This document shows positions 34,679 to 62,127 of a stretch of DNA of 64,000 nucleotides, one piece after another. A program made the position numbers and the translations under genes. Location: IMG/VR virus record IMGVR_UViG_2923084042_000004, positions 1 through 64,000 of that record. One strand, 5' to 3'. The notes below the pieces were generated by a model. That model searched no databases, was not told where the DNA came from, and saw only the letters and a program-made list of their open reading frames with translations. Each line of letters starts with the position of its first letter. Position 1 is the stretch's first letter. Source of the DNA: a virus (Duplodnaviria > Caudoviricetes).

Positions 34679-35614
34679 CTATGACCGCATCGACAGTATT
34701 TTCCCCGCCAAGAACGCCTTCCGCTTTAGCATCGCCAGGTACAACCGACGCGCCAAACTTTCCTCGTGCTGCAACGTTATCTCTACCGCCTTCCCTACGT
34801 TCGGATGCTCGACTATACGTTCAATCAGCGCTAACTTTTCGCGCATCCCTTTATCGCAGCCCGGCTTGAATTCGTTCTGTATACATCCGTTTACCGCGAT
34901 ATAACACTTCCGTCGCGCCAGATCCACCGCAACCTTCTCGTCGTACAAACCCCACCGTTTCGCGTACGTTTCTAGCGTATTGCCGTTTATGTAAGAATCG
35001 AATAGCTGCGGGTTGTATTTGCGCATCAAGCTCTCGTCGTTAATCTGCCGGTAATGATACAACGCTTTATCGATATAATAAGCCGTCTTAAACAGCCAAT
35101 CTTCGCCGAGATACTTGCCGTCAGGGAACGCTAGATCATACGTTTCTAGCCGGCGTATAGAAAATCCGTCAGTATCTCCGCCTTGATCGCGTCACGGTCC
35201 AACGGCGTATTTGCTTTTGCGCTATAGCTTTTCGATGCATCTTCGTATTCCCAACGCATGTCTGTAAATACAATATCGGCGTTATTTTCAAGCGCAGCTT
35301 CGTACATTGTCGCGTAAGTTTCCCGATCGACCCAAAAACGCCATGTACTCACCCTTCGCCTGCTTTAGTGCGTTATTTCGCGCCGTGGCCGGACCTTGAT
35401 TTGCTTGGTAGATCGGCTTAACGCGTTCGTCGGTGGCTTCGTAGTACCTCAAAATAGTACGTGTTGAATCGGTTGAACCGTCGTCTACGATCAAAACTTC
35501 GATATTCTTCAACGTCTGTCCGAGCACACTATCTAAACAGTCGCGCAGGTATTTCTCGCCATTGTATACCGGTATAATAACGCTCACTTTGACTTTCGGT
35601 CTCATTTCGTCCAC
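34679..35614 (-). pseudogene. Family 2 glycosyltransferase pseudogene (three fragments)
   Basis: VSVIIPVYN...VDDGSTD...ARN; frameshift with loss of the DxD motif after GEYMAF; further break before ALYHYRQ. Confidence 0.85.
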
Positions 35615-36325: not shown

Positions 36326-36529
36326 ATGCAGCAGCTTATGATTCGCAAAATATGGTCGGATACACCGGCACTTACACCGCAGCAGGAAGCGCAGATCCTC
36401 GATCTATACGAGCGCCCCGCCGCCAATTTCGGTCGATGTGGGCGCGCTTACCAAATTGGGATCAATTCGATGTTACAATATTTCGGCTATCGGATCGAAG
36501 TCGAAACGGAGGCTATGAACGATGATTGA
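36326..36529 (+). CDS. Hypothetical protein
   Basis: GGAGG RBS, operon context. Confidence 0.55.
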   Translation: MQQLMIRKIWSDTPALTPQQEAQILDLYERPAANFGRCGRAYQIGINSMLQYFGYRIEVETEAMNDD

Positions 36530-36638
36530 ATACGCTTGTAACGAATGTAATTACGCAAGACTTGACGTAAAAATAGAGCCTGACGCGTGCTGCCCTACGT
36601 GTGGAGCGCGCCTGCAGGTCGAGGAGGAAATCGTATGA
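36522..36638 (+). CDS. 38-aa zinc-ribbon protein
   Basis: MIEYACNECN...CCPTCGARL; GGAGG upstream; overlaps both neighbours. Confidence 0.55.
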   Translation: MIEYACNECNYARLDVKIEPDACCPTCGARLQVEEEIV

Positions 36639-37072
36639 AACGTTTATTTAAATCAATCGTAATCACCGCGGCTTTATTGACGAGTACTATCGCCTTAGCA
36701 CCACAAGCAGACGCAGCATGGTCGGGATGGCAGACGGAGAAGTTTGGACATAAAGCGCGCGTTTATACGGATGCGACTACGTATACAAGCAGCGCAAAGT
36801 CGGTCGATTGGAAAGCCGAAAAGAAAGGCGCGGCCACGCTTTATTACACGGCCGGCGTATATAAAAAGCGCTCAGGTGGCGGGCTGACCGATACGGGTTT
36901 AGTGCAGCGCGGAAGCTTTAAGACCGAAACGCCGCTGAAGTCGTTTAGCGTAAAGTCGATTCGCGGTAAGACTGGCGCCGGTAGCTACGTGATCCAGGTC
37001 GATTGTTATACGGATTCGGGCAAGAGCCACTATATCGGAACTTTTGAGTCGGCGCGTTTTAACGTGAAATAA
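36635..37072 (+). CDS. Secreted protein of unknown function
   Basis: GAGGAGG RBS; Sec signal MKRLFKSIVITAALL...ADA then a beta-rich mature domain. Confidence 0.75.
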   Translation: MKRLFKSIVITAALLTSTIALAPQADAAWSGWQTEKFGHKARVYTDATTYTSSAKSVDWKAEKKGAATLYYTAGVYKKRSGGGLTDTGLVQRGSFKTETPLKSFSVKSIRGKTGAGSYVIQVDCYTDSGKSHYIGTFESARFNVK

Positions 37073-37223
37073 GCGTGTGTGAGCCGTTTTAAGCTGCGAG
37101 GTACTTAGTGTACCTGATCGGCGCTAAGGCGGCTCTTTCGCTTTGATTTCGTGGTATAATCGTTCTATACGGAGGTTGAAGCGATGGAAACGAAAGACTA
37201 CGAAAAATATTTAAACGCAAAAA

Positions 37224-37251
37224 TAAAGACGCCTTAACGGGCGTCCTTTTT
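37224..37251. terminator. Bidirectional terminator
   Basis: GACGCC-TTAACG-GGCGTC hairpin flanked by A and T tracts. Confidence 0.75.
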
Positions 37252-37255
37252 CGTT

Positions 37256-37345
37256 TTATGCTCCTCTAACGATACCCTCTAACGGACTAGCTCCTCGCGG
37301 CATTCCGTATAATTGCGGCCCTGCGCCCGGATTTAATTCTCCCAT
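37256..37345 (-). CDS. 29-aa peptide carrying heterologous arbitrium sequences GMPRGA and GIVRGA
   Basis: GGAGGTGA RBS, ATG at 37345; MGELNPGAGPQLYGMPRGASPLEGIVRGA*; TG-N-TATAAT upstream; terminator downstream. Confidence 0.85.
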   Translation of the reverse strand: MGELNPGAGPQLYGMPRGASPLEGIVRGA

Positions 37346-37374
37346 TCGACTCACCTCCGACCTACATAGTAAAA

Positions 37375-37803
37375 TTATACCACGCGCGCTTTCCTTTTCG
37401 CACCTATATTCGACCATATCGCGTCCTGCTTCCGTTTATTCTCGGCAGCCTCCGGAAACATGCGAAAAAACTCGGCTTCGTCTTCGATCGGCTTTCGGAA
37501 ATAATAGACGAGGTTCTTCGCGCCACCTCCGTTCTCTACCGTCTGTATAAGTTGCGCCTGGACTAGCGTTTTGACCGCGTTACGATACGTTGAGTCGCTT
37601 ATAGCCAGCGCCCTAGCCGCCTGTTCTTGCGTCGGAAAGGCGTAACCGTAGTCCGCGTTATAAAACTTCAGCAGAAACGCGTATACCAACACGGCGTTAC
37701 CGTTCAGCTTCGGAAAGTATTGATAATGCGTAAGAATAACGTTAGGTATGCCCGTATAGCCCGCCGCAGTATCAAACGGTAGGGCCTTCGCTTTATCGCT
37801 CAT
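37375..37803 (-). CDS. HTH_36-type winged-helix protein, replication-initiator-like
   Basis: GYTGIPN, LVYAFL, YAFPTQEQAA...VKTL. Confidence 0.75.
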   Translation of the reverse strand: MSDKAKALPFDTAAGYTGIPNVILTHYQYFPKLNGNAVLVYAFLLKFYNADYGYAFPTQEQAARALAISDSTYRNAVKTLVQAQLIQTVENGGGAKNLVYYFRKPIEDEAEFFRMFPEAAENKRKQDAIWSNIGAKRKARVV

Positions 37804-37834
37804 ATAATCGTCCTCCACTTAAATAATATTCGAC

Positions 37835-38014
37835 TTAAGCCGGCTTACGGCGCTGCCACTCCGTCAATAAACGATCGAGTTCGGGCGTACGCGCATATTG
37901 CCAAAACTTCCGTAAAGTATTTTCGTTCAGGCCTACGCAGATATAGCGTTGGTTGTGGTCGCGCAGGAATTCGTATAGATTCGCAGAATAGCAGTAATAA
38001 TAGCCGTTTTGCAT
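37835..38014 (-). CDS. 59-aa phage protein (DUF5659-like), not in ORF track
   Basis: GGAGGTG RBS; MQNGYYYCYSANLYEFL...RKFWQY...LLTEW. Confidence 0.65.
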   Translation of the reverse strand: MQNGYYYCYSANLYEFLRDHNQRYICVGLNENTLRKFWQYARTPELDRLLTEWQRRKPA

Positions 38015-38081
38015 TCGGTCGCACCTCCGTAAATATATAAATAAAAAGGCGCCTATGCGCCCGTATGCGTAATTCCCGCAA

Positions 38082-38546
38082 CTACATGAAATTATATCTA
38101 GTTATCTTATTTTTTAAACTTTTATCGAATTTATTTGTAATATAGTTAAATAAATCCACTGTATCTTCATCAAAATAACACCAATCCCGTTCATTTTTAG
38201 GATCTTCCCTATTCCAGTAATTTCTCGACCACTCATTTAACGATTCTTTTTCAGTTACTTTATATTGGTTTTCTTTAGTAGGAACCAGTAAGTAGACATA
38301 CTCATGATTTCCGCAAACAAAATAATTATCAACAAACAGAAGTAAGTCTGAGTACATTTGCTTTCGGTAATCTCTGTACCTCATGTCTGCGTAGTCGTCT
38401 TTTTCTAGTCCTGCATATTTATTTAGTTTTTTCAGTTCATTAGTATTAATCAATTGATTCTTTTCGAAAACCTCGGTCTGTGAGAACCCGACAATAGGAC
38501 TGTTCTTAACCAATTTATCTACGTGTTTTCTATATCTACTCTTCAT
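38082..38546 (-). CDS. AT-rich hypothetical protein
   Basis: AAGGGGAG RBS; visibly lower GC than neighbours. Confidence 0.65.
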   Translation of the reverse strand: MKSRYRKHVDKLVKNSPIVGFSQTEVFEKNQLINTNELKKLNKYAGLEKDDYADMRYRDYRKQMYSDLLLFVDNYFVCGNHEYVYLLVPTKENQYKVTEKESLNEWSRNYWNREDPKNERDWCYFDEDTVDLFNYITNKFDKSLKNKITRYNFM

Positions 38547-40940: not shown

Positions 40941-41321
40941 GTGGCAATTAATTGGATATCAGCGCAGAATAACGACGCATATATAACGCTTGATTCGCAG
41001 AGAAGAATTTACATATCGTCTGGCGCTCGTAATATTATCGGGCTTCCTAACAAAGCACCGTTTTATTTAACGCTTGGATACGACGAGGAATCACGCCGGC
41101 TTGTTTGCGCAAAGCCCGAGAACGTAAAAGCTGACGTCGCACCGTTCAAATTCGATAAGCGTTCGTATAATAAGGCCGCCAGCAAAGTTCTACAAACCGC
41201 AGGATTCCGCGAAGAAGACTTACCGTTGCGCTTCTACATGGTCGGCGAAGGTGAAGCCGCAAAACAGGCGTACGTGGCGTATCCTGAAGGCGTTTATGCT
41301 TTCGAGTTAAGTCGTATCTGA
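40941..41321 (+). CDS. Counter-oriented moron gene, possibly AbrB/MraZ-like fold
   Basis: Own promoter, GAGGTG RBS, GTG start; ITLDSQRRIYI motif. Confidence 0.65.
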   Translation: MAINWISAQNNDAYITLDSQRRIYISSGARNIIGLPNKAPFYLTLGYDEESRRLVCAKPENVKADVAPFKFDKRSYNKAASKVLQTAGFREEDLPLRFYMVGEGEAAKQAYVAYPEGVYAFELSRI

Positions 41322-42547
41322 TCCGCAAGCGCCCGTCCGATATACCACGCAACGCGCGAAGCAATTCCGTTCCCAACGATCCGATATTGCGCCGTTAAGG
41401 AAATATCGTCTGGCAGGACGTAAGTGTCTGGCGCAGATTGGATTCGGAGACATTCCCGGACGGTGAAACGTCGGATTAGTCCGTCTATATTTGTTATTTC
41501 ATTCGGTTTCTTCGCTGCATATGAAGCCAATACTGTCCTTGCTACGGTAGAACCATCATTAATCGGCATTTTTCCAAAATTCGTCTTAGATTTGCCGTCA
41601 ATCACGTTCTGGACGTATTTAGGAAGTCTATCTTCTGGTGTATGGTTTGGACAAGGCTCCGGCAAATCCCCGATCACATCCCGTAACACCTGCGTTTGAT
41701 AATCGCCTTCTAACGGCTTCGGAAACTCGAATGTGAAACCGAGGTCATTCCGCACACCAACTATAAACACTCGCTCACGCTTCTGCGCTACACCGTAATC
41801 CCATGCGTTTATTACTTGCCAGCTAATCTCGTAACCTATTTCGTTAAATTTCTCGATAAGCGCATCGAATGTAGGACGATGGCGCTTCGTTATCAACCCT
41901 TTTACGTTTTCAAATACGAAGGCTTTCGGCTGCTTGTGTTTAATAATTTCGAGGTAACGCCATACTAATTTACCACGTTCACCGTCAGCGCCGGCGCCTT
42001 TGCCTGCAACCGAGAAGTCCTGACACGGAGGACCACCGAATATAACGTCTGTGTTCGGCAGGTCATCGATATCAATTTCGTTAATGTCCGCCTGTTCTAC
42101 GTAATCACCGAAGTTGTGGCGGTAGGCTTTGACGGCATTCTTATCGAAGTCCAACGCCTTCACGATATGGTAGCCGGCCGCTTTGAATCCGATTGCGCCA
42201 AGTCCTCCTCCGCAGAATAGTTCGAGTACCGTCAGTCCATTTGCCGGCAGTTGCGGCGTTAAGTTAAAGTCGCCCATATATTCGCTCCTTTCGATTGATT
42301 CATTCGGATGTAAGTGGCATGTAGCTTTCGCCATTACCGACGCCGTGATCGTCAAAGCCGGCTCATCCCAAGACATTTTACGAAGATATGTCGTTTGACC
42401 ACCTCCGCTATAAAACGCCCCTCTCATAAACGCCTTCTGTTCTTCTTCCGGAAGATCGCGCCAGTTACCACCATCCGGAATCTTGTGCGCATAGGGTTTC
42501 TCATCATTTCGTAACCCGTATCCGTAATGATTCGGTATATTCATCAA
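41294..42547 (-). CDS. C5-cytosine DNA methyltransferase with an extra N-terminal TRD
   Basis: ELFCGGG, GGPPCQDFS, ENV, QKRER, GN motifs; internal RBS and ATG at 42277. Confidence 0.92.
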   Translation of the reverse strand: MMNIPNHYGYGLRNDEKPYAHKIPDGGNWRDLPEEEQKAFMRGAFYSGGGQTTYLRKMSWDEPALTITASVMAKATCHLHPNESIERSEYMGDFNLTPQLPANGLTVLELFCGGGLGAIGFKAAGYHIVKALDFDKNAVKAYRHNFGDYVEQADINEIDIDDLPNTDVIFGGPPCQDFSVAGKGAGADGERGKLVWRYLEIIKHKQPKAFVFENVKGLITKRHRPTFDALIEKFNEIGYEISWQVINAWDYGVAQKRERVFIVGVRNDLGFTFEFPKPLEGDYQTQVLRDVIGDLPEPCPNHTPEDRLPKYVQNVIDGKSKTNFGKMPINDGSTVARTVLASYAAKKPNEITNIDGLIRRFTVRECLRIQSAPDTYVLPDDISLTAQYRIVGNGIASRVAWYIGRALADQIRLNSKA

Positions 42548-60739: not shown

Positions 60740-60859
60740 TTATCCTCCGATCGCGTTGATTGCTACTTCTTCACCTGGATCTGATACCTGATTACTATAC
60801 AGCAACCCTAGAGCTAACACACTCACCAATGTTAAAACAACTAATAAAGTCTTCTTCAA
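60740..60859 (-). CDS. aimP: Arbitrium pro-peptide AimP (39 aa; predicted mature INAIGG)
   Basis: AAAAGGAG RBS, TTG; MKKTLLVVLTLVSVLALGLLYSNQVSDPGEEVA-INAIGG: signal peptide, VA processing site, C-terminal hexapeptide. Confidence 0.85.
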   Translation of the reverse strand: MKKTLLVVLTLVSVLALGLLYSNQVSDPGEEVAINAIGG

Positions 60860-62033
60860 AAACAACATCTCCTTTTTTCGATGAGGTTCCCCTCAAGTTT
60901 ATTGTCAGGTTTTTGATGAAATCAGTACATTCGCCTGCCTCCATCAAATCCCTTACAATTATAGATGCGTAATACAAATTAGAATCGGACACGAAATCGC
61001 AAAACTTTTTATAAAGGCTTTTCCGATCTCCTGAAATCGCCTCAAAATATCCGGTAAGGTCAGGGTCGCCCATTTTCCCAACGCAATCTAGTGCATCTTC
61101 ATAGGAGACTTTTCCTTTTCTAAACCCCTCAACCTTTTTCAAAACATCGGGTGCACTTTCTTCAACTTTCTTTGATAAGAGGATTCTAGCAAAGTTATAA
61201 TTATAAACCGCATACCCTTCTAATCGCTCGTTTTTTAATTCTTTAGCTACTTCGACACTGTCTTTTAAGTATCTCAAACAAATTGATTCATCTGTTTGCA
61301 GGTAAGTCATGCCAATGATGTACAAAGCGTCTGAATTCACTCTCTTGTTAATATTAGCATTGAGGAGAATATTTGAGTAGCGTCTAGCTTCTTCTAAGTT
61401 GTTTGAAAAAAGGTGTGCATATGCTAAAATCTCAGATAGCCTATACAAATAACACTCTTTTAAAAACAGATGAGATTTATCATTCAATCCATTTATTTGA
61501 ACTTCGAGTTCTGAAGCTTTGTTTATTACATATGAGAACTGTCTTTTATGAAGTAAAGTGATGCAACCGTAGATGTCTACAAGAATTTTAAGGATTGGGT
61601 CGTTGAGGTTTGATAGTTTGTCTAGTTCTTCGTTCATTGAATCGAACTTAACTTTTCCGTGCATGTACTTACTGATAAAAGAATACACCTTGACGTACTT
61701 CTCGATAATATTCCGCTTTTCGCATTTATAAGTCTCGATATGGTTATCCAGAAGCTCGATATCTCTAGTTATAGCAGCATACTCAAAAGTCTTTCTTATA
61801 CAATCGGAGCTCTCGGTTAATTGAGGGCATACGTCTCTCATAAAGGATCTATAATTTTCAGGATCTGCTAATTGCGAAAGGACAAGAAGGCTTCTTAATG
61901 TCAGTTTCCGCTTTCCAGCTCTAAGGTTTCCTACCTGTTTTGTAGACAGTTTTAAATATGACGCGATTAATGAGTCATTTAAATCATCTCTGTCCGAAAT
62001 ACGATCAAATAGAAAGTTTCTAACTTTGTCCAT
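60795..62033 (-). CDS. aimR: Arbitrium receptor AimR (HTH + TPR, RRNPP family)
   Basis: N-terminal HTH, helical repeats (FEYAA, NNLEEARRY), immediately followed by a secreted peptide gene; likely start MDKV at 62033. Confidence 0.85.
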   Translation of the reverse strand: MDKVRNFLFDRISDRDDLNDSLIASYLKLSTKQVGNLRAGKRKLTLRSLLVLSQLADPENYRSFMRDVCPQLTESSDCIRKTFEYAAITRDIELLDNHIETYKCEKRNIIEKYVKVYSFISKYMHGKVKFDSMNEELDKLSNLNDPILKILVDIYGCITLLHKRQFSYVINKASELEVQINGLNDKSHLFLKECYLYRLSEILAYAHLFSNNLEEARRYSNILLNANINKRVNSDALYIIGMTYLQTDESICLRYLKDSVEVAKELKNERLEGYAVYNYNFARILLSKKVEESAPDVLKKVEGFRKGKVSYEDALDCVGKMGDPDLTGYFEAISGDRKSLYKKFCDFVSDSNLYYASIIVRDLMEAGECTDFIKNLTINLRGTSSKKGDVVFEEDFISCFNIGECVSSRVAV

Positions 62034-62103
62034 GTTGTTCACCCCAGTTTTAAGTAAATGAATGACATTTCCACCACGTTTAAGTATAATTGAATTATAG
62101 CTC

Positions 62104-62127
62104 ATATGTTTACGTATGTAAACATAT
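62104..62127. promoter_or_regulatory. Palindromic operator between aimR and an XRE gene
   Basis: ATATGTTTAC-GTAT-GTAAACATAT; 16/18 copy at 60683-60700. Confidence 0.7.

Follow-up and report, generated by a model that had tools for sequence, protein, structure and literature searches.

Proposed signal forgery in phage rivalry: a portable mini-gene of Bacillus prophages that encodes the arbitrium peptides of other phages

Arbitrium, with its AimR receptors and AimP peptides, is a model for virus-to-virus communication, and one locus raises a question about it: why would a temperate phage carry a very small gene that spells out the signals of other phages? The mini-gene lies at 37256..37345 on the minus strand of a 64,000-nt stretch (the window, meaning the whole stretch of DNA that was analysed) of the 72.8-kb IMG/VR provirus record IMGVR_UViG_2923084042_000004. 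Judged from sequence comparisons, it is well supported that the product of this mini-gene mimics the signals of other phages, and the mini-gene is probably a tool that feeds rivals a false "go dormant" message. The overall interpretation favoured here, held with moderate confidence, is that of a portable poly-signal gene that forges the arbitrium signals of rivals and would push them into lysogeny or hold them there.

The open reading frame (ORF) comprises 29 codons and a stop, running from an ATG at 37345-37343 to a TAA at 37258-37256, and its product, MGELNPGAGPQLYGMPRGASPLEGIVRGA, is parsed as MG-ELNPGA-GPQLY-GMPRGA-SPLE-GIVRGA. Three hexapeptide cassettes, all on the minus strand, are joined in it by two linkers. 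The first cassette, ELNPGA (37322..37339), is the signal of a third phage group and is followed by the linker GPQLY (37307..37321); the second, GMPRGA (37289..37306), is of the SPbeta type and is followed by the linker SPLE (37277..37288), which conforms to the family consensus x-P-x-[E/Q]; the third, GIVRGA (37259..37276), is of the Katmira/Goe11/Goe14 type and abuts the stop codon, which gives it a free C-terminus. The ribosome-binding site (RBS) GGAGGTGA (37351..37358, minus) is placed 5 nt 5' of the ATG, and a bidirectional intrinsic terminator of nine pairs and a T run (37225..37248, minus) marks the end of the portable cassette. An earlier, sequence-only reading had described an ORF ending in GMPRGA-SPLE-GIVRGA, with an RBS and a terminator directly after the stop, and the minus-strand sequence 37345..37256 agrees with it, as do the elements at 37358-37351 and 37248-37225. 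The same reading held that two exact hexapeptides were improbable by chance, and the calculation is in accord with this: GMPRGA with GIVRGA-stop within the next 10 residues has an expectation of 3e-11 over all six frames of the window.

Among the cassettes of the wider family to which the mini-gene belongs, seven are documented or canonical arbitrium signals, namely GMPRGA, GIVRGA, SAIRGA, SIIRGA, SASRGA, SPSRGA, and ELNPGA. According to published accounts, SPbeta, Goe12, and Goe13 signal with GMPRGA, and Katmira, Goe11, and Goe14 with GIVRGA, SAIRGA is the phi3T signal, and SIIRGA, SASRGA, and SPSRGA are named clade-2 arbitrium signals. The same peptides are found at the ends of canonical AimPs, where a slash marks the maturation site: ...GDYEVA/GMPRGA in 18 isolate proviruses, ...GDYQVA/GIVRGA in Goe11, ...VTVA/SAIRGA in phi3T and SPbetaL5, and ...IKVA/SPSRGA in SPbetaL3. 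ELNPGA, in turn, ends signal-peptide-bearing AimPs (...FKVA/ELNPGA) that adjoin AimR in three proviruses (L132, L135, and L136). The attribution of GMPRGA to SPbeta and of GIVRGA to Katmira, made in the sequence-only reading, is therefore upheld by this literature and by the Goe11 AimP, and its suggestion that ELNPGA might be a third signal proved right, ELNPGA being the C-terminal peptide of AimR-adjacent AimPs in three other proviruses. As a separate observation, the ELNPGA-type provirus L132 and L121, a canonical GMPRGA SPbeta-like provirus, share a host-genome id, so that two of the phage types putatively targeted by the window mini-gene co-occur in one strain.

The carriers speak other dialects. 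The window record encodes terminase, portal, major head protein, endolysin, DNA polymerase, ribonucleotide reductase, methyltransferases, and a phage sigma factor, together with one AimR (60795..62105, minus; PF22871, E 1.2e-24), which is the sole AimR in the 72.8-kb record and is situated about 23 kb from the mini-gene. Its AimP (60740..60868, minus) is 42 aa long, bears a signal peptide, and ends in ...EEVA/INAIGG, a type common to the window phage and to phi18-2, 268TH007, and 268TH002. More generally, the carriers are 65-70 kb phi18-2-like temperate phages of the Bacillus subtilis group, and their own signals are INAIGG (one carrier), ELRPGG (one), ANQLGG (two), DIRVGA (six), and EIKVGG (one). 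A readable AimR-AimP pair is available for 11 carriers, and in none of these does the mini-gene include the signal of its own phage, which extends to the whole set what had been noted for INAIGG here, that the carrier's peptide is unrelated to the cassettes. The mini-gene product was also said to have neither a signal peptide nor an adjacent receptor, and this holds: its maximal 9-residue Kyte-Doolittle hydropathy is 0.84, compared with 2.97 for the phage's own AimP, and the only AimR is the distant one.

Carriers and putative targets are nevertheless neighbours in a genetic sense. The nearest isolates, the B. subtilis phages 268TH007, 268TH002, and phi18-2, are about 89% identical to a 24-kb query across 20-25% of its length, and parts of this query match phi3T, SPbetaL5, and further SPbeta-like phages at 88-90% identity. 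The carrier group and SPbeta-like phages thus exchange DNA, and therefore meet in the same cells. The shared segments, which cover methyltransferase and hypothetical genes, lie within 22000-46000 of the window, for example at 41320-42244.

The mini-gene is a member of a family that includes 13 IMG/VR provirus records (the window among them), one metagenome contig, and further protein-database entries, and that amounts to 16 distinct intact products of two to four cassettes, encoded by ORFs of 17-39 codons. A search with the upstream protein returned five related proviruses, one of which has an identical mini-gene, two have variants, and two have none. When the 53-aa in-frame ORF of the window was compared with a protein database and the matching clusters were expanded, 16 entries emerged, including one with a frameshift (P0006). 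The degenerate pattern GMPRGA-xPL[EQ]-xxxRGA was found in ten IMG/VR records and one metagenome contig, and the pattern RGA-xPx[EQ]-xxxRGA-stop added two more members, both without GMPRGA. A profile from alignment A2, compared with 1.84 billion representatives, gave eight matches at E<=0.001, three of which are family members; the other five (204-1200 aa, with three to nine matching stretches each) were taken for repeat proteins from their length and match pattern alone. A 17-nt promoter word occurs at 47 IMG/VR loci, of which only three have the mini-gene, all already known, and a pattern of promoter plus RBS had no match in the metagenome collection.

The family members differ from one another by whole cassettes. 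In addition to GMPRGA, GIVRGA, SAIRGA, SIIRGA, SASRGA, SPSRGA, and ELNPGA, the repertoire includes SIVRGA, GPVRGA/V, ELKPGG, and EIKPGA/EIKLGA. One arrangement is M-GMPRGA-SPLE-GIVRGA, and M-GMPRGA-SPLE-SIVRGA differs from it in the final cassette. Longer variants are M-GMPRGA-NPLE-SAIRGA-GPAE-SASRGA, M-GMPRGA-SPLE-SIIRGA-GPAE-SASRGA, and M-GMPRGA-NPLE-SAIRGA-SPSRGA, and two others open with a cassette of the second class, MG-ELKPGG-FPQRY-GMPRGA-SPLE-SASRGA-GPVRGV and MG-EIKPGA-NPLE-SIIRGA-GPAE-SASRGA. The expectation of orthologues with variable xxxRGA cassettes, SAIRGA included, is thus confirmed by members from IMG/VR, the metagenome, and the protein database. The 36-nt N-terminal module of the window, consisting of cassette 1 and the GPQLY linker, is itself an in-frame presence/absence polymorphism.

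What surrounds the cassettes is equally regular. All linkers (SPLE, SPLQ, NPLE, GPAE, GPTE, GPQLY, and FPQRY) have Pro at position 2 and end in E, Q, or Y, and SPSRGA and GPVRGA, both of which start x-Pro, join the preceding cassette directly with no linker; this regularity suggests a specific processing rule. GMPRGA stands directly after the initiator Met in 9 of the 16 variants, and the last cassette of every variant ends at the stop codon. At the DNA level, GMPRGA is represented by five haplotypes among 11 sequences, with every difference synonymous, and SASRGA is written AGC GCA AGT AGA GGC GCC in one phage and AGC GCA TCA/TCT CGC GGA GCA in others, two spellings of one peptide with 7 mismatches in 18 bases. 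Since GMPRGA changes only synonymously, SASRGA is kept across these differences, and entire modules are gained and lost in frame, selection acts on the peptide. Single substitutions, GMARGA and SLLE, are found in a few family members.

The unit also appears to move as a block. On the minus strand, TG-G-TATAAT (37374..37382) combines a perfect -10 hexamer with an extended-10 TG, and the upstream gene has its stop codon within this element. That gene encodes a 147-aa HTH_36 / DnaD_N-like DNA-binding protein (37375..37818, minus) and forms the context outside the cassette. The conserved block starts at this -10 element (GGTATAATTTTACTAT), reaches to the terminator, and is found behind two unrelated upstream genes, the second context having an unrelated 273-aa gene in place of the HTH_36 gene; both contexts occupy the same syntenic site, at the end of a methylase / sigma-factor / DNA-binding-protein operon. 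The RBS GGAGGTGA is kept in every family member whose upstream DNA was read, and because the in-frame DNA 5' of it is wholly different between the two contexts, the start is fixed at the RBS-proximal ATG. The terminator alone, without the mini-gene, is present in L003, one of the related proviruses, and by blastn in the isolates phi18-2, 268TH007, and 268TH002; in L003 the indel is flanked by a short ATAA repeat. The unit may be a moron, an autonomous accessory cassette: it has a terminator, a clean indel, and one block that occurs behind two genes, but of a promoter only the conserved -10, with a weak -35.

If these observations are read as signal forgery, the locus would be a portable moron-like unit of -10 element, RBS, 17-39-codon ORF, and terminator, and its product would be a leaderless poly-arbitrium precursor holding two to four mature signals, of SPbeta-group clade 2 and of the ELNPGA/EIKPGA class. 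The precursor would be cut into hexapeptides, which would occupy the AimRs of rivals and turn aimX off; an infecting rival would consequently be steered into lysogeny, or a resident rival kept from inducing, and the carrier's own AimR, of a different specificity, would stay unaffected. Two routes may be envisaged. By cytoplasmic trimming the effect would be private, in that the lysogen would be protected and co-resident rivals silenced at co-induction; by spill at lysis, cleavage by secreted proteases, and Opp uptake it would be public. The removal of Met before Gly is an established rule, and few cuts would be needed, because GMPRGA directly follows Met in 9 of the 16 variants, where loss of Met would leave its exact N-terminus, and the last cassette ends at the stop.

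Some cutting there must be. As set out in the structural literature, clade-2 AimR binds an extended hexapeptide, holding its N-terminal amine via Q299/E300 and its C-terminal carboxylate via R228, residues conserved across clade-2 AimR. Because the receptor anchors both termini of the peptide, the full-length product cannot bind in the known mode and must first be cut. The proposal that the ORF encodes a cytoplasmic mimic able to silence the AimR of other phages stands in part: mimicry of their signals is well supported, the cassettes matching real signals and being foreign to their carriers, while expression, a cytoplasmic site of action, and an effect on AimR are presumed. The consequences expected of free peptides have been described elsewhere. 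According to two recent reports (Gallego-del-Sol et al., Cell 2026, PMC13220667; Manley et al., bioRxiv 10.1101/2025.10.13.681967), adding an AimP peptide, whether cognate or cross-talking, prevents induction by mitomycin C and tips the decision towards lysogeny, and a prophage that emits the peptide gains when a superinfecting phage is driven into lysogeny. Taken together, the existence of a family, the unit-wise swaps of cassettes, selection on the peptide, the foreign signals, and the portable block all argue for forgery.

A number of points weigh against it, the first of which concern maturation. Each internal cassette needs at least two specific cuts, the linkers are unlike the canonical -V-A/ maturation site, the mini-protein has no signal peptide, and to our knowledge no protease is known for such linkers. 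Expression is a second difficulty. A consensus promoter scan called no promoter at the mini-gene, where the best -35 matches 3/6, and the TG extension of the -10 is found in only one of the two upstream contexts, so that the extended -10 of the sequence-only reading is present here as TG-G-TATAAT and is not general to the family. There is also no terminator between the mini-gene and the HTH_36 gene; with no called promoter and no separating terminator, independent transcription and co-transcription are both possible.

Each of 24 sequencing runs listed contained less than half of the sampled words, and the four that were compared with the window consist of assembled, unstranded contigs. The RNA-seq-labelled run X6 includes a 337-nt contig at depth 112 that matches 37206-37303 exactly, a span comprising the terminator together with the final 48 nt of the ORF, and is identical through ...MPRGASPLEGIVRGA. 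Upstream of the GMPRGA codons it departs, reading ...MPMTYPWM-G before MPRGA, which points to a third upstream context or to a different N-terminal module in the family. It also contains 204 nt resembling the convergent downstream gene of relatives. The HTH_36 gene is matched in this run by a contig with a depth of 4.8, but contig depths cannot rank genes, and RNA libraries can contain DNA. A probably-DNA wastewater run contains 37157-37380 in identical form. Since the contigs of the RNA run are unstranded, they permit no conclusion on transcription of the mini-gene, which counts among the reservations.

As a separate observation, a strong promoter-like TTTAAA-16-TATAAT (10/12) lies within 38047-38118 (minus), and some 30 nt beyond it comes a terminator-like hairpin (38062-38047), immediately 5' of the unit formed by orf59, the HTH_36 gene, and the mini-gene; the pair may be an attenuator or antitermination point.

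Further reservations concern the breadth of the family and the identity of its cassettes. The family is small, and it was not found in 50,697 phage records, 72,556 plasmids, or the GTDB species representatives; a tblastn search of the phage collection with the 29-aa product gave no match, the query being too short to be informative. The GTDB species representatives contained no relative of the HTH_36 protein, and the pattern GMPRGA-xPL[EQ] had 21 matches there, all in unrelated taxa and at about the level of chance. For SIVRGA, GPVRGA/V, GMARGA, ELKPGG, EIKPGA, and EIKLGA, no canonical counterpart was found in a search that did not extend to supplementary census tables. The GPVRGA/V pattern had 24 matches, two of which are mini-genes; among the other 22, the motif was located in 17, all of them contigs of 54-68% GC with no AimP-like leader, and the pattern VA-SIVRGA had no match. 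A census of signals with a canonical AimP as query returned a single protein. Co-residence with a GMPRGA-type prophage was not seen: compared by IMG genome id, none of ten carrier host ids recurs in the set of 18 isolate proviruses whose AimP ends canonically in GMPRGA.

Two carrier records, finally, contain a second, clade-2 arbitrium system that the forgery reading has to accommodate. The G013 record (L077/L182, 95.5 kb) has a 320-aa clade-2-type AimR (238 bits to PF22871), whose AimP ends in ...FHVA/GFGRGA. The G012 record (L051; L177/L181) shares its mini-gene with the window and has, about 2.7 kb away from it, a phi3T-type aimR, which a 376-aa insertion-element-like ORF interrupts and which contains TGA/TAG stops; an intact aimP ending in ...VVTVA/SAIRGA follows this aimR, the system lying about 2.7-5 kb from the mini-gene. 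No carrier-type AimR was found in this record (83 kb, 65% complete), and its appearance is that of a carrier that has been fused with SPbeta-like DNA or has undergone recombination with it. GFGRGA and SAIRGA are both outside the cassettes of the respective carriers.

The uncertainty over maturation gives room to a variant of the forgery reading that has another route and another beneficiary. It holds that the precursor acts as a public false signal only after the carrier has lysed its host, being spilled along with the virions, cut by secreted Bacillus proteases, for instance after the linker Glu or Tyr, and imported via Opp, upon which the phages of neighbouring cells would read "hosts are exhausted" and lysogenise early. 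The absence of an export leader fits such a route, as does the fact that nearly all inter-cassette linkers end in E (once in Q) and the N-terminal linkers in Y. Such ends suit secreted Bacillus proteases such as the Glu-specific endopeptidase and subtilisin. Medium conditioned by one phage, moreover, alters the decisions of another with a gain in fitness for the emitter, as reported in the cross-talk literature. Against this route stand the dilution of the peptides outside the cell and the internal cassettes, which still need a cut at RGA/xP to obtain a free C-terminus, and the position of GMPRGA right after Met in 9 of the 16 variants is an economy useful only if a leader is never needed. As the main mode of action, a purely public signal is somewhat unlikely.

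If peptides are released at all, they might instead be addressed to the bacterium, pushing it to sporulation or altered biofilm formation to the benefit of the prophage. A 2026 preprint reports that B. subtilis colonies respond to SAIRGA independently of AimR and form more spores. SAIRGA is, however, the only one of the signals reported there as host-active, and the window mini-gene lacks it; the cassettes vary at exactly the residues that set AimR specificity, and two unrelated signal classes, xxxRGA and E-x-x-P-G-A, fit many receptors and not one host target. A host-directed signal is accordingly considered improbable.

That the uncut product cannot bind AimR invites a different thought, namely that the uncut or partly cut polypeptide jams the rivals' machinery by competing for OppA or for maturation proteases, which would reduce the signal that reaches them and push them to lysis instead of lysogeny; several motifs resembling Opp substrates are present in the product. 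A competitor of this sort needs no exact hexapeptides, no free C-terminus, and no exact N-terminus after Met, and a leaderless cytoplasmic product would meet OppA or secreted proteases only at cell lysis. Jamming is thus very unlikely.

The second AimR-type genes of G012 and G013 could, in principle, make the cassettes a second input to the carrier's own decision, read by its own AimR or by another receptor of the carrier, an idea for which no direct support was found. Yet in 9 of the 11 complete carriers a single AimR is accompanied by an adjacent cognate AimP that belongs to a different class, five different own specificities accompany the same GMPRGA cassette, and neither GFGRGA nor the disrupted SAIRGA system matches a cassette of its carrier, which makes this hardly credible. 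The least probable proposal is that the locus is no functional gene but an ORF that arose by chance, the decayed remnant of an aimP, or a non-coding element. It can point to the frameshifted copy P0006 and the few single substitutions (GMARGA and SLLE), but it is strongly disfavoured in view of the chance expectation of 3e-11, the conserved RBS, the synonymous variation, the in-frame gain and loss of a module, the lack of similarity to an AimP leader or pro-region, and the lack of any Rfam match over 36500-38200 at E<=1.

Signal forgery thus remains the favoured reading, and a tentative extension of it, which may or may not prove right, is that cassettes are swapped by recombination to match the arbitrium phages that compete locally; the mini-gene would then be a programmable multivalent weapon aimed at the communication systems of temperate phages themselves, and arbitrium diversity would in part be an escape from forgery. 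Conversely, no leaderless ORF ending in a carrier-type signal was found in the SPbeta-like loci examined at a GC of 0.5 or less, 18 of them with a canonical GMPRGA AimP, or in the aimR regions of Goe11, phi3T, SPbetaL3, and SPbetaL5. If forgery is true, this would be the first signal-counterfeiting device in phage-phage conflict, and it could account in part for how rapidly AimR-AimP pairs diversify and for their horizontal exchange. It would also offer a natural and compact tool, 17-39 codons in length, for forcing defined temperate phages into dormancy, and it raises the biochemical question of how a leaderless poly-peptide is cut into hexapeptides.

The surroundings of the mini-gene include other small genes. 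An opposite-strand island (36326-37072, plus) converges on the mini-gene terminator and consists of a 67-aa ORF, a 38-aa CxxC...CxxC ORF, and a secreted-looking 145/161-aa protein (phrog_8287, function unknown); relatives have other convergent genes at this site, including one for a 59-aa Cys-rich protein, and a 17-codon remnant ORF with its own GGAGG is present at about 37186-37239 (plus). Further along, a 108-aa ORF (35288-35614, minus) covers just the first 85 of the 168 positions in Glycos_transf_2 and looks like a truncated glycosyltransferase (of the GtrB-like O-antigen conversion type in PHROGs).

How does the mini-gene compare with known systems? The closest relative in content is canonical AimP (NF033802). 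The mini-gene encodes identical mature hexapeptides, one of which is always at the extreme C-terminus, and the phages carrying it share hosts with those that encode canonical AimPs. The architecture is different: AimP has a Sec signal peptide and a pro-region, whereas the mini-protein has neither, with no hydrophobic stretch in any of the 16 variants; AimP is encoded directly 3' of its cognate aimR, whereas the mini-gene follows the HTH_36 or the 273-aa gene; and AimP delivers a single signal of its own, whereas the mini-gene product holds two to four different signals foreign to the carrier. AimP matures at EVA/, QVA/, TVA/, or KVA/, in contrast to the mini-gene linkers GPQLY, SPLE, NPLE, GPAE, and GPTE. 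The 29-aa and 39-aa products have no NCBIfam or Pfam match at E<=10, and a canonical SPbeta-type AimP, used as a control, scores 70.1 bits against the AimP profile, for which the cut-off is 35; the mini-protein shows no similarity to the AimP leader or pro-region.

Other peptide systems share single traits with the mini-gene. Multi-copy precursors, such as yeast alpha-factor and the multi-core precursors of ribosomally synthesised and post-translationally modified peptides (RiPPs), yield several mature peptides per product, with spacers removed by proteases. In such precursors the repeated signal is that of the producer itself, export leaders are present, and the processing enzymes are known, whereas the cassettes of the mini-gene are foreign, mutually different, and without a leader. 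The SIP/RopB signal of Streptococcus pyogenes, reportedly described by Do and colleagues in 2017, is said to be leaderless and to act on a TPR (tetratricopeptide repeat)-type cytoplasmic receptor, and the mini-gene resembles it in being a peptide signal made without a secretion leader. SIP is otherwise single, cognate, unprocessed, encoded beside its own receptor, and bacterial, in all of which the phage mini-gene differs.

In outcome, the nearest parallel is arbitrium cross-talk. Gallego-del-Sol et al. (Cell 2026, PMC13220667) and Manley et al. (bioRxiv 10.1101/2025.10.13.681967) describe, in their main texts, related phages that cross-talk with and manipulate each other via their own secreted AimPs, and the outcome proposed here is the same: a foreign peptide represses AimR, favours lysogeny of the rival, blocks induction, and benefits the emitter. 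These main texts, as distinct from their supplements, mention no orphan, decoy, or mimic genes, and the full-text literature searched gave no description of a dedicated leaderless multi-signal gene. Cross-talk as published there is the action of an emitter's secreted AimP on a similar receptor, a by-product of relatedness; the mini-gene, by comparison, is a dedicated, receptor-less, and leaderless gene that encodes exact copies of the signals of several unrelated rivals.

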